64,000 bases of DNA, taken from positions 352,001 through 416,000 of the forward strand of contig CAVSHR010000012.1 in assembly GCA_963727625.1 (NCBI GenBank), read 5' to 3'. Positions 684-53,935 of the stretch are shown here, piece by piece. The notes beneath the pieces were generated by a model that saw nothing but the letters and a program-made list of their open reading frames with translations, did no database searches and was not told the DNA's origin. The DNA is from an uncultured delta proteobacterium. Its GTDB lineage: Bacteria > Desulfobacterota > Binatia > UBA9968. The translations under genes were made by a program, and so were the position numbers. The stretch's first letter is position 1. Each line of letters starts with the position of its first letter.

Positions 684-1178
684 CTATTTCTTCAACATGA
701 AGTCCAAGTCCTCAGCGAGTGATTGGAGATCCTCCTCGTGCGCCACCTCATCCTGAAGAATTTGCAACACCATGTTGTAAGTCACCGGATCTTTTCCTTG
801 GGTAGCGTCGAGCAATCGTTTGTAAAAGCCGATGGCGCAGCGTTCGCCTTGGATATTCTGTTTGAGGATGGTCTCGACGAACGGATCGTCGGGTGCGTCA
901 TAGCCGCAACTGGTCACCTCGTACCACTTTTTCGGCTCGGTCACCGGCGTGCCGCCAAGCTGAATGATCCGGGTTGCGACCATGTCCGCGTGGCGCAGCT
1001 CGTCGGCGGCATGCTGCAAGAGTTCGGCGATAACTCCCTCTTTCATCGGCCCCTTCACCACCTTGGCGCCAAGCCAATACTGATAATAGGCAAACCATTC
1101 ATCCGCAAAGGCCTTGTTCAGTAGATCCAACAGCTGCTTCACATCCATGCCGACAATTTCGATGCCTTTGCTTCCCAT
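684..1178 (-). CDS. DPS-like (DpsL/thioferritin-type) ferritin-family protein
   Basis: ADEWFAYYQYW, DELRH, ERCAI, DEVAHEEDL di-iron motifs; two Cys (SCGY, ERCA) as in DPSL proteins; GGAGG RBS. Confidence 0.85.
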   Translation of the reverse strand: MGSKGIEIVGMDVKQLLDLLNKAFADEWFAYYQYWLGAKVVKGPMKEGVIAELLQHAADELRHADMVATRIIQLGGTPVTEPKKWYEVTSCGYDAPDDPFVETILKQNIQGERCAIGFYKRLLDATQGKDPVTYNMVLQILQDEVAHEEDLQSLAEDLDFMLKK

Positions 1179-1195
1179 CGTTCATCCTCCCTAGC

Positions 1196-2311
1196 TTAGC
1201 TCGCTACGATCCAGTCCGGTTCCCGGGTAATTGTTTTGAGTTGCGCCCGCTCTTCCGCGCTCGGCAGCGCTTCTTTGAGGTGAAGCGCGTAGGCGTTCTC
1301 ATCGAGTGGCTCGCCGGTCGCGCTAAAACGCTTCCCCTGGCTGTCCCCGATGCTTCGATGGAACTTGAGATCCGGGGTATAGAGCTGCGGTTTGTCGGGG
1401 CCGATGTCTTTGTTGAGAATCTCGACCAGCCCTTGCACTTCCTTATGGTAGAGATTTCGGGCGAGCTCGTTCACGGCGTCGGGATCAGCCAAAGCACCGG
1501 CTTCGTTTTCGTTGAAGCGCCCTTTTAAGCCCCACCGGTACGCCTTGCCCCCCCCTTTGGAACGCTCATGGCCGAACAGGTCAAAGCAAACCGGCAACCA
1601 GCGGTTGAGTATTTTTTGGACAATCTCCACCGGCACCTTTCCAGCGCGCAGGATTCGCTGCAAACCGGTGAGGCCGGTCAAAAGGTGAAACGATTCTTCA
1701 TTCAACATCGGCCCCATGCTGCTGCCGAGCGGGCCGAACCCCGAGTGACTGAGCATCTTGAGTTGGTACATGCCGTCGCGATCGACGAACGCAGTGAAGG
1801 TGAAGAAGTCGAGCCAATCTTCGACCGGTTCGTTAAAGGCGCCAAGGATTCTCTCCTTCTTGTCCGCGCGCCGTTCCAAAAGCTTGCGCGCTTCGGCCTT
1901 TCCCGCGTCGCCGAAGTGGCGCACCAAGAGATAGCTCATCTGCCAGCCATGGCGCATCTCCTCGGCATTGATCCGCACGATGCTGCGCAGATCGCGCTCC
2001 GTCGGCGCCGAGTCGAGCAACTTGCGCTGCAATTCCACCGACGCGAACTCCGTGTCGCCCTGAATCGTGATCAATTTTAAAAGCAGATCGCGGATCTCGG
2101 GTCGGGGAATGTCATTGACGTCCTGCCATCTCCCTGTGCCGCTAAATTCACCGAAGCCTATTTCTCCATTCGGCGATTCGGCAAATTTCTCTGAAAATTC
2201 ATAGCCCTGGAGCACCGAGGAGAACAGCTTGGAATCGTAGTTGATGTCCTTCTGCCATTGCTGAAAAACATCTTTCCAATCATCGAAGGTTTCTATGCGC
2301 GTGGTCTTCAT
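1196..2311 (-). CDS. BoxB/PaaA-like di-iron aryl-CoA epoxidase-family subunit
   Basis: QGDTEFASVE, AEEMRHGWQM, ILGAFN, FVDRDGMYQL, NEESFH motifs; start moved to ATG 2311 (RBS GGAGGG, downstream of sigma-54 promoter). Confidence 0.8.
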   Translation of the reverse strand: MKTTRIETFDDWKDVFQQWQKDINYDSKLFSSVLQGYEFSEKFAESPNGEIGFGEFSGTGRWQDVNDIPRPEIRDLLLKLITIQGDTEFASVELQRKLLDSAPTERDLRSIVRINAEEMRHGWQMSYLLVRHFGDAGKAEARKLLERRADKKERILGAFNEPVEDWLDFFTFTAFVDRDGMYQLKMLSHSGFGPLGSSMGPMLNEESFHLLTGLTGLQRILRAGKVPVEIVQKILNRWLPVCFDLFGHERSKGGGKAYRWGLKGRFNENEAGALADPDAVNELARNLYHKEVQGLVEILNKDIGPDKPQLYTPDLKFHRSIGDSQGKRFSATGEPLDENAYALHLKEALPSAEERAQLKTITREPDWIVAS

Positions 2312-53476: not shown

Positions 53477-53576
53477 AAATCGACGGTCAGGGCGCCGGCG
53501 GCGCAAACGCAACGAACGGAGCGGCCCGCGCGAAGGCAGGTCAACCAAGATGATCAAAACCTTGGGGGAGGTTACG

Positions 53577-53935
53577 ATGAAGAATTATAAGAATAAGATA
53601 ATGAAGTCTACGATAAGCGCTTGAGAAAACGTCGAGACGAAATTTTGCTGACGCTCGAACATGTGCGGAAAGAGCAGCGCACGGTCAACGATAATAAAGA
53701 CTGGATCGATCACGCCGCCTACCGAAGCCGGGTCGAATTGCTCGACAACCTGACCGACTGGTACGTCAAAGAGGCGGCGCGCATCGACGGCGCCCTCAGC
53801 CGAATTGCCGAAGGCCTATACGGTGTTTGCCTCGGTTGCCGCGAGCCGATTGCGCCGGATCGTCTCGAGACCGCCCCCGAAGCGGCTTTCTGCGCCGAGT
53901 GCCAGAACAGTAGAGAAGAACTGACGGCTGCGTAA
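53577..53935 (+). CDS. DksA/TraR C4-zinc-finger protein, apparent frameshift near the N-terminus
   Basis: DWIDHA (DxxDxA), YGVCLGC..I...RL...PEA.FCAEC; RBS-linked ATG 53577 is out of frame with the body (in-frame TTG at 53621). Confidence 0.8.

Follow-up and report, generated by a model that had tools for sequence, protein, structure and literature searches.

The window analysed here, a stretch of 64,000 nucleotides (G000:C12:352001-416000) in the 6.62-Mb, 15-contig genome of an uncultured delta proteobacterium, carries between its positions 684 and 53935 a cluster of stress genes, called the island below, which surrounds a sensor histidine kinase and a response regulator of the NtrC family. 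The reading preferred here, with a probability of about 0.6, is that the island comprises operons for stress, low oxygen and growth arrest that are transcribed from sigma-54 promoters and equipped with dyad enhancers for an NtrC-family activator, the latter standing under a FixL-type kinase and having a paralogue as a second input. Open reading frames (ORFs) were called by length and third-position G+C content and annotated with Pfam and NCBIfam, which gave ca. 48 genes and ca. 3 small ORFs in ca. 25 transcription units (Table 1). An earlier note, made from the sequence alone, had described about 50 stress genes around one pair of a kinase and a bacterial enhancer-binding protein, and the inventory matches it almost item by item. 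Relatives used for comparison are designated by G numbers, G000 being the genome that carries the window.

Sigma-54 promoters and their shared dyad

A strong sigma-54 element was defined as TGGCAC-N5-TTGC with at most one mismatch. The window contains 12 of them, as compared with 5.4 ± 2.3 in shuffled sequences (1 of 100 shuffles reaches 12), and 11 fall within the island. This raw count is only modestly high, and the position of the elements is the stronger point: all 12 lie in non-coding DNA, which makes up 23.5% of the window, and point at gene starts 26 to 302 nt downstream, the 302-nt case falling to 88 nt when the ORF of 57 amino acids (aa) coding for a Zn_ribbon_8 protein is counted. 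Genome-wide there are 380 strong elements, i.e., 3.7 per 64 kb, and the island stretch of contig C12 is one of the three regions of the genome where they are densest. When conserved two-mismatch elements are included, a sigma-54-like element is found at ca. 18 of the ca. 25 units, so that most units have one, as had been claimed. The elements show the conserved -24 GG and -12 GC at a fixed spacing and lie upstream of genes, and the genome has one rpoN. Orthologous promoters keep the element in 3/3 genomes for Hsp20, the ribosome hibernation factor HPF and YbaK, in 2/2 for archease, BcrAD and cytochrome c, in 3/4 for the CBS operon, and in 5/5 for the weaker element between the kinase and the activator. 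Since the genome also encodes ca. 27 full-length sigma-54 activators, sigma-54 promoters alone cannot identify the regulator.

A dyad was found by eye in alignments of orthologous upstream regions, first as TTCGCA-N4-TGCGAA and then in the refined form TTCNCA-N4-TGNGAA (16 bp, counted with at most one mismatch); plain k-mer enrichment upstream of the promoters gave AT-rich words and TTGCAAG and no clear motif. The window holds 9 refined dyads against 2.44 ± 1.57 in shuffles, none of 100 shuffles reaching 9, an excess that is partly circular because the motif was derived from the same promoters. Independent evidence is provided by genome-wide, mirror-control and cross-genome tests. The dyad occurs 161 times in the genome (1.56 per 64 kb), and in 26 cases it precedes a strong sigma-54 element by 20-160 bp, versus one in the mirrored position; for the earlier consensus paired with sigma-54 elements the corresponding numbers were 33 and 2. 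Tandem dyads have a start-to-start spacing that peaks at 31 bp (12 cases, with 0-6 at all other spacings from 11 to 89 bp), and the dyad-promoter distances (d) cluster at 30, 40, 51, 61, 72, 82, 91, 102, 111, and 131 bp, which corresponds to a phase of ca. 10.1 bp (R 0.63; nominal p 2e-6, with no correction for the range of periods tried or for the sharing of dyads). In the divergent HPF/YbaK and Hsp20/unk123 regions both dyads are placed at equal offsets in G000, G005, and G017, and the leader of the activator gene itself carries dyads in four genomes; the one directly upstream of its start codon is a possible autoregulatory site. These tests support the notion that the shared upstream dyad, as a predicted binding site, joins the promoters into one regulon.

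Pairs of a dyad and a sigma-54 element are also found outside the island in G000, upstream of genes for pyruvate:ferredoxin oxidoreductase, a MacB/ABC pair, a phosphorylase-like protein, an M50-CBS protein, a CBS-CoA-binding protein, a GerE protein with a multihaem cytochrome, universal stress proteins (USPs), a rubrerythrin-like protein, and a fatty-acid desaturase. A gene for a ThsB-like TIR-domain protein (PF08937; C7:120294-120692), far from the island, likewise lies downstream of a sigma-54-like element and a one-mismatch dyad.

The kinase, the activator, and a receiver-less paralogue

The third PAS domain of the kinase (PAS3, residues 519-645) aligns without gaps over 127 aa with the haem domain of Bradyrhizobium japonicum FixL (1dp6; E value 5e-28, 101 bits). 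It matches DosP of E. coli more weakly, and HisKA and HATPase_c follow directly after it. The haem-pocket residues of B. japonicum FixL are, in the numbering that we take to apply, H200, R206, and R220. The proximal His and both Arg columns, marked by the R206A (2cmn) and R220A (1y28) entries, are conserved in PAS3, and with nine orthologous kinases the His is invariant (10/10 aligned), while the R206 column is a Tyr in G149. PAS3 is thus a homologue of the FixL haem-PAS domain, and the kinase was rightly called FixL-like; with the NCBIfam FixL model it scores 223 bits, below the 850-bit equivalog cut-off. By this homology PAS3 is predicted to bind haem, and the direction of its response to oxygen would be deduced in the same way. 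The GAF domain of the kinase showed no similarity to the structures of the haem-GAF domains of DosS and DosT at E values up to 1 in the Protein Data Bank (PDB). A search of genome contigs with the kinase returned a single Bdellovibrionota kinase core, which at 27% identity was rejected as unrelated.

The activator contains the domain set Response_reg, Sigma54_activat, and HTH_8 (Pfam E values of 1.5e-69, 6e-27, and 1.5e-11), with the receiver Asp53, the Walker A motif GESGVGKE, a GSFTGA loop, and a Fis-type helix-turn-helix (HTH), and with receiver, AAA+ and Fis-type HTH all found, it is the NtrC-type sigma-54 activator that had been proposed as the partner of the kinase; it reaches no NCBIfam equivalog cut-off. 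In each of the four loci of the genus that were looked at first, the activator (82-87% identical) is adjoined by the haem-PAS-kinase core, the kinase being conserved only from the haem-PAS domain onward. Of the 151 genomes sampled from the class, 81 encode an orthologue of the activator with 58-65% identity, while its best full-length paralogue within G000 is 43% identical. Across the class, the sequence retrieved on either side of the activator orthologue (32-80 kb) included a FixL-PAS kinase at 9 of 14 loci, and most of ten distant loci have CBS, USP or Hsp20 genes near the activator; in G149, a dyad is located between the divergent sigma-54 promoters of a CBS gene and a USP gene. Scans of the ten distant loci with the NmpR-type patterns GCA-N5-TGC and GCA-N4-TGC were uninformative. 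Around a second activator homologue (65% identical) on contig C40 of G152, 40 kb of sequence contain 15 strong sigma-54-like elements and almost no dyads, which suggests another enhancer specificity there.

Of the 31 genomes of the genus, 17 encode the activator, and it is accompanied by the kinase. The promoter of the gene for HPF-CSD, a fusion of HPF with a cold-shock domain, was found to have tandem dyads at ca. 78 and ca. 110 bp in seven of eight further activator-positive genomes and in G009, besides the 3/3 found earlier; these dyads thus occur in 10/11 activator-positive and 0/7 activator-negative genomes, counts that are not independent, the genomes being related. The HPF-CSD sigma-54 element is retained in only three of the seven activator-negative genomes; in G015, sites resembling the dyad are present at different distances. 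Composite matches (dyad-N35-65-sigma54) number 32 in G000 and 30 in G006, both activator-positive, against 0-1 for reversed-pattern controls.

Another candidate for these sites is a receiver-less paralogue of the activator, encoded at ca. 224.7-225.8 kb of contig C5 in G000. It is 56% identical to the activator over the AAA+ and HTH domains, shares the GSFTGA loop with it, and reads SLSSLYRK in the recognition helix where the activator reads SLSTLYRK; judging by this near-identity, it most likely binds the same dyads. Its gene lies downstream of a sigma-54 element and a dyad, and homologues of 315-336 aa are encoded in G051, G007, and G016, which lack the kinase-activator pair. The surrounding region, ca. 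217-238 kb of C5, is a second small cluster with genes for a USP, a CBS protein, a tandem USP, an AAA_33 kinase-like protein, and a rubrerythrin-like protein. Composite sites persist in the pair-less genomes G051, G004, and G007, and the local pair is therefore not the sole, and perhaps not the primary, factor acting at the dyads. It is this persistence, together with the near-identical recognition helix of the paralogue, that favours a model with two activators, in which the allotment of individual dyads to one or the other is presumptive. The earlier claim that the local pair runs the island accordingly stands in part: dyads in the leader of the activator gene and the tracking of the activator by the HPF tandem dyads speak for it, the sites retained without the pair and the existence of the paralogue do not.

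In the mechanism proposed, each promoter would combine a -24/-12 element with one or two dyads, 31 bp apart, on a fixed helical face 30-130 bp upstream, the dyad serving as an enhancer for the NtrC-family activator. When the haem-PAS domain lost oxygen or bound another diatomic gas, the kinase would autophosphorylate and pass the phosphate to Asp53 of the activator, which would then oligomerise on the dyads and remodel the sigma-54 holoenzyme. The expected outputs would be ribosome hibernation (HPF-CSD, YbaK, the aeRF1-like protein, and archease-RtcB), proteostasis (Hsp20, the Lon-like protease, and the second DnaK/DnaJ), oxygen-independent dNTP supply with NAD salvage (class II ribonucleotide reductase (RNR), the second nicotinate phosphoribosyltransferase (NAPRTase), the phosphoribosyltransferase (PRTase), and the dienelactone hydrolase (DLH)), and finally many nucleotide-binding USP and CBS proteins, hemerythrin, and cytochromes. 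The receiver-less paralogue, itself made from a dyad/sigma-54 promoter, could act as a second, kinase-independent input or as an amplifier. The units would presumably be induced together, and by hypoxia.

Several points weigh against this proposal, besides the partial circularity of the in-window dyad count and the relatedness of the genus genomes mentioned above. Six or seven units are wholly without a sigma-54 element, namely those of the S-adenosylmethionine synthetase, the PriCT protein, the cytochrome c'-like protein, the kinase (its own upstream region), unk166/DUF2934, and the rubrerythrin-like protein, and in G000 the sigma-54-like elements of the USP gene (44797), unk146, unk189, and NAPRTase are not accompanied by a dyad. 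The N-terminal GAF domain and the two further PAS domains of the kinase diverge between genomes and could carry other signals. At five of the ten distant loci, which have an activator 58-65% identical, no FixL-PAS kinase was found in the 32-40 kb fetched, and clear dyad/sigma-54 pairs were seen only in G149, G054, and G137. Finally, the pair-less genomes keep composite sites (15 in G051, 11 in G004, and 8 in G007), and in G051, 96% complete and devoid of the kinase and the activator by the queries used, the perfect sigma-54 element of archease-RtcB is preceded at 61 bp by a dyad that is likewise perfect.

A wider and more tentative version of the two-activator model is a dormancy-entry circuit, in which a fall in oxygen would, through the activator, switch on ca. 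20 operons along with a signal-free paralogue that binds the same dyads and locks the programme in. The activator would then represent a class-wide, unrecognised family of oxygen-responsive regulators akin to NmpR (see below) in logic and perhaps in descent. The recurring modules (archease-RtcB-aeRF1-like, RNR-DLH-PRTase-NAPRTase, HPF, and USP/CBS/Hsp20) would make up a portable kit for survival in hypoxia that different phyla have separately put under DosR, Anr/FNR, or sigma-54 activators.

Clearly less probable than the preferred reading is the reverse order, with the receiver-less paralogue primarily running the regulon and the kinase and response regulator being a later, optional addition for a subset such as HPF-CSD/YbaK; the core signal would then be other than oxygen, e.g., a PspA-like partner switch or growth arrest. 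The paralogue is present in all the sister genomes examined and sits among USP and CBS genes behind its own dyad and sigma-54 element, and its homologues and the composite sites occur together in genomes without the pair (8-15 sites versus 0 in controls), including sites beside the paralogue and at archease-RtcB of G051. Nevertheless, the tandem dyads of HPF-CSD are found only together with the response-regulator activator, activator-positive genomes have two to four times as many composite sites, dyads occupy the leader of the response regulator gene, and the densest cluster surrounds the pair in every genome that has it.

That the island is only a neighbourhood of general stress and stationary-phase genes, on which several of the ca. 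27 sigma-54 activators act independently, is improbable. The clustering would in that case reflect expression level or history, and the likeness to the DosR regulon would come from ubiquitous families. The number of activators and the 380 strong elements agree with such a view, as do the commonness of USP, CBS, and Hsp20 proteins (for CBS and USP, no specific kinship with the Mycobacterium tuberculosis proteins is seen), the mosaic cargo in the genus, and the units lacking a dyad. It does not account for a shared dyad with fixed tandem spacing, helical phasing, and cross-genome conservation, found once in the mirrored position against 26 times in the proper one, nor for the DosR-like sets of neighbours (archease-RtcB with the aeRF1-like gene, RNR-DLH, and PRTase-NAPRTase).

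Relation to known low-oxygen regulons

The earlier note knew of no description of a sigma-54 version of such a regulon, but the NmpRSTU system of Myxococcus xanthus, in which a haem kinase and an NtrC-like regulator govern sigma-54 promoters induced by hypoxia, is already one (PMC11841059). The NmpR regulon comprises 7 promoters and 23 genes, scattered over the genome and including CBS, USP, and hemerythrin genes; NmpR is autoregulated, and its sites are paired GCGCA-N5-TGCGC inverted repeats, two per promoter, about three helical turns apart (PMC11841059). The two systems resemble each other, by description, in the path from a haem sensor through an NtrC-like regulator to sigma-54 promoters, in paired inverted repeats with a GCA...TGC core at these promoters, and in a cargo of CBS (the first gene of the nmpR operon there), USP, and hemerythrin genes. 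They differ in the sensor, which here is a FixL-type haem-PAS domain in the cognate kinase, whereas in M. xanthus the protoglobin kinase NmpU acts through a phosphorelay with the hybrid kinase NmpS and NmpT; in the site, which here has an N4 spacer and TTC/GAA flanks; and in the layout, with ca. 18 promoters and ca. 50 genes clustered here, and more outside the window. In the literature searched in full text, no case came up in which a FixL-type haem-PAS kinase is the direct partner of an NtrC-type activator controlling so large a clustered regulon, NmpRSTU being the only close match. The interpretation given in the earlier note is thus in part supported: right in outline, overstated in novelty, and incomplete in wiring.

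The kinase resembles that of the FixL-FixJ system in having a haem-PAS domain with the His and both Arg residues directly before HisKA/HATPase. Its partner, however, is of the NtrC type (Response_reg, Sigma54_activat, and HTH_8) and not a LuxR-type FixJ, the kinase has additional GAF and PAS domains, and the output is stress genes instead of fixK, nif or cbb3 genes; neither a cbb3 oxidase nor HemN was seen in the window.

The regulon that DosR controls in M. tuberculosis holds, among others, the CBS protein Hrp1, HspX, and the aeRF1-like Rv2629. It further includes the RNR Rv0570, the PRTase Rv0571c, the nicotinate PRTase Rv0573c, the RtcB Rv2631, Rv2630, USPs, and the ribosome-associated hibernation factor Rv0079, and its genes are distributed in nine dispersed blocks (PMC5309233). 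When the annotation was compared with this gene set, all the DosR-regulon families that had been named proved to be present in the island at the Pfam/NCBIfam level, with matches for RNR, PRTase, NAPRTase, RtcB, archease, Hsp20, USP, CBS, and HPF; the correspondence holds for families only, since CBS1 and a tandem USP retrieved no structure of Hrp1 or Rv2623 from the PDB at 1e-5. As in M. tuberculosis, the PRTase gene is situated beside that for NAPRTase, DLH beside class II RNR, and archease beside RtcB. For DnaK, NAPRTase, RNR, and the Lon-like protease, the island copy is the second in the genome, a parallel to the logic of pncB2 and nrdZ of M. tuberculosis, which in hypoxia draws on second copies of its housekeeping enzymes. 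The wiring differs, as had been claimed: DosR is a LuxR/NarL-type regulator that acts with the GAF-haem kinases DosS and DosT at sigma-70-type promoters, while here the regulator is of the NtrC type, the sensor a haem-PAS domain, and the GAF domain unlike those of DosS/T. Moreover, the nitroreductases, narK2/narX, and tgs1 of the DosR regulon have no counterpart in the window. A search of the literature for the context of Rv2629/baeRF1 brought up only the enzymology of RtcB and archease.

In physical clustering the island resembles the lxa locus of Burkholderia cenocepacia, which contains ca. 50 co-regulated low-oxygen genes and was likened to DosR by its authors (PMC3721108). Common to both are several USPs, an alpha-crystallin, class II RNR, transporters, two-component systems, and one recurring motif; that of lxa is the Anr/FNR-like TGA-N6-TCA, located at 17 intergenic points (PMC3721108) and implying CRP/FNR-type control of sigma-70 promoters, unlike the control proposed here. 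RtcB/archease, NAPRTase, and HPF, present in the island, are not mentioned for lxa in the available part of that report. Predicted sigma-54 promoters before USP genes have also been recorded in Planctomycetia in a 2025 survey (PMC12316311).

While low-oxygen regulons are already known from Mycobacterium, Burkholderia, and Myxococcus, the direct pairing of a FixL-type kinase with an NtrC-type activator over a clustered regulon appears, by the literature searched, to be new here. If the preferred reading is true, one low-oxygen toolkit is found under at least three unrelated controls, of the NarL type (DosR) in Mycobacterium, of the FNR type in Burkholderia, and of sigma-54 here and in Myxococcus. 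It could then be argued that the modules themselves (RNA repair, ribosome hibernation, oxygen-independent dNTP supply, NAD salvage, and nucleotide-sensing USP/CBS proteins) are the functional unit for survival without growth. With ca. 18 promoters, one dyad, and two candidate activators, the locus would also be a compact system for the sharing of enhancers by paralogous enhancer-binding proteins. As the host is an environmental bacterium of the soil and uncultured type, the locus is of practical use mainly for annotation and for the reading of metatranscriptomes from oxygen gradients.

Gene content, extent, and conservation

Table 1. Genes and predicted regulatory elements of the island (window coordinates; E., element)
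Feature	Position	Strand	Basis and remarks
BoxB/PaaA-like di-iron protein and ferritin-like protein	684-2341	-	Pfam, NCBIfam
Sigma-54-like E. (2 mismatches)	2338-2352	-	Serves di-iron and ferritin-like genes; with dyad 2392-2407 (d=40)
Tandem USP	2635-3675	-	Weak sigma-54-like element 3599-3613, weak dyad 3660-3675; real start codon probably downstream of 3599
baeRF_family12/Host_attach (aeRF1-like) protein; 104-aa protein	5395-5919; 6094-6408	-	Pfam
Sigma-54 E.	6434-6448	-	Serves 104-aa protein and baeRF_family12/Host_attach genes; dyad-like site 6489-6504
Long operon (down to 11460)	11460-19001	-	Gly-zipper, 162-aa protein, DnaK (16206-18080), HlyD, ABC ATPase, MacB, OEP
Sigma-54 E.	19033-19047	-	Serves Gly-zipper/DnaK/MacAB-TolC-type efflux operon
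Tandem dyads	19178-19224	.	Between divergent cytochrome c and Gly-zipper/DnaK promoters
Sigma-54 E.	19241-19255	+	Serves cytochrome c (19327-19755); kept in G014
Dyad TTCGCGGCACTGCGAA	21187-21202	.	62 bp upstream of archease promoter; identical dyad and distance in G006, G051
Perfect sigma-54 E.	21264-21278	+	Serves archease operon
Archease; RtcB; Band7; DUF1488	21311-21733; 21743-23173; 23258-24043; 24045-24335	+	Pfam
Weak dyad	24444-24459		Before BcrAD/BadFG activase; d=70 here, d=71 in G014
Sigma-54 E.	24530-24544	+	Serves 1380-aa activase (BcrAD/BadFG x2 and DUF2229), 24592-28734
PRTase; NAPRTase	28994-29641; 29678-31063	-	Pfam
Sigma-54 E.	31255-31269	-	Serves NAPRTase and PRTase
NtrC-family response regulator/sigma-54 activator	31547-32896	-	Pfam, NCBIfam
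Dyad	32914-32929	.	Directly upstream of activator start codon; equal offset in G003, G014, G017
Sigma-54-like E. (2 mismatches)	33008-33022	-	Between kinase and activator; same place in 5/5 genomes compared
Sensor histidine kinase, 871 aa	33087-35702	-	GAF, three PAS, HisKA, HATPase_c; Pfam, PDB sequence search
Third PAS domain (residues 519-645), FixL-type haem-PAS	33768-34148	-	phmmer
PriCT_1 (primase C-terminal) domain protein, 371 aa	36158-37273	-	Adjoins kinase; Pfam
Dyad	37314-37329	.	91 bp upstream of CBS-operon promoter
Sigma-54 E.	37420-37434	+	Serves seven-gene CBS operon
CBS operon: Zn_ribbon_8; CBS1-3; hemerythrin; DLH hydrolase	37523-37696; 37736-39296; 39348-39857; 39913-40590	+
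NrdJ/Z-type class II RNR	to 42430	+	Last gene of CBS operon; TIGR02504, 632 bits vs cut-off 400
Lipoprotein-like cytochrome c'-like protein	42571-43002	-	C-terminal CxxCH motif; feature-based lead only; no sigma-54 element found
Sigma-54 E.	44797-44811	-	Serves single USP (44213-44710) and tandem USP (43311-44252)
Sigma-54-like E. (2 mismatches)	47986-48000	-	Serves YbaK (47399-47884) and HAD-HerA-like fusion (45644-47374); kept in 3/3 genomes
Tandem dyads	48081-48127	.	48081-48096 and 48112-48127, spaced by 31 bp; YbaK and HPF promoters diverge on either side
Perfect sigma-54 -24/-12 E.	48207-48221	+	Serves HPF-CSD fusion (48273-48896) and tandem USP (48918-49730)
123-aa protein without Pfam family (unk123)	49930-50301	-	13 paralogues scattered across genome
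Perfect sigma-54 E.	50358-50372	-	Serves unk123
Tandem dyads	50402-50448	.	50402-50417 and 50433-50448; between divergent unk123 and Hsp20 promoters
Sigma-54 E.	50499-50513	+	Serves Hsp20 (50592-51020), LonB/C-like protease (51017-53476), DksA/TraR (53621-53935); 3/3 genomes

The island contains four USP genes, three of them tandem, and also a gene for an NTP transferase. Its DnaK is 55% identical to the copy encoded on contig C3 and apparently heads, after the Gly-zipper gene and the sigma-54 element, an operon with a MacAB-TolC-type efflux set. The USP promoter at 44797-44811 has no dyad, and its element was not found in G017. In G137 the NAPRTase orthologue (74% identical) is preceded by a sigma-54 element and, 72 bp upstream of that, by a dyad. 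The gene for the cytochrome c'-like protein is kept near the kinase gene in G003, G014, and G017. An Rfam scan returned the tmRNA only, with no cobalamin riboswitch before the gene for the B12-type RNR.

The span of the island was borne out, but not its left limit, as promoters and genes of the same kind reach at least 30 kb further to the left. This extension, followed to at least 319.9 kb of C12, encodes DnaJ, a DUF2267 protein, tandem USPs, thioredoxin, more USPs, and a second Hsp20, whose gene follows a perfect sigma-54 element and a dyad.

In related genomes the order of genes is retained beyond the genus: the PriCT protein, the kinase, the activator, and the cargo are syntenic in other genera, as in G137, where the activator is 80% identical and a large island includes RNR, DLH, NAPRTase, PRTase, HPF, and Hsp20 genes. 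Orthologues of the PriCT_1 protein (61-70% identical) are encoded next to the kinase in G005, G014, G017, and G137; the protein had no relative in the PDB at 1e-3, and no further mobile-element genes lie close by. The cargo is mosaic in the genus, RtcB being present in 6/31 genomes, NrdZ-like RNR in 4/31, and HPF-CSD in 25/31. The G+C content is even, 0.52-0.63 across the window as compared with 0.55-0.58 for the contigs, and no integrase or transposase family turned up among the Pfam-scanned ORFs, flanking repeats not having been searched for. Given this even composition and the missing integrase family, the cluster is, judged by its sequence, one conserved in the lineage and not a mobile island, despite the tmRNA gene. 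A horizontally acquired island integrated near that gene with its own regulator, to which the primase-type protein adjoining the kinase and the patchy distribution of the pair in the genus might point, is very improbable in view of the composition and gene content just described, of a position ca. 9 kb from the 5' side of ssrA and not at its 3' end, of the synteny in other genera, and of the conservation of the activator across the class.

The tmRNA gene itself (63360-63712, plus strand; tag peptide ADNFEYALAA) is located ca. 9 kb to the right of the final island operon, and the interval at 54-60 kb has a low G+C content and few convincing ORFs. Within the island, the S-adenosylmethionine synthetase encoded at 19825-21162 (minus strand; PF01941, E value 2e-145) is of the archaeal type, in a bacterial genome. 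HPF-CSD is a Ribosomal_S30AE hibernation factor whose cold-shock domain is C-terminal. The HAD-HerA-like protein, an unusual fusion of a HAD-IIB phosphatase domain to a HerA/DUF87-like P-loop ATPase, is encoded by a gene co-transcribed with that for the YbaK-type aminoacyl-tRNA editing protein.

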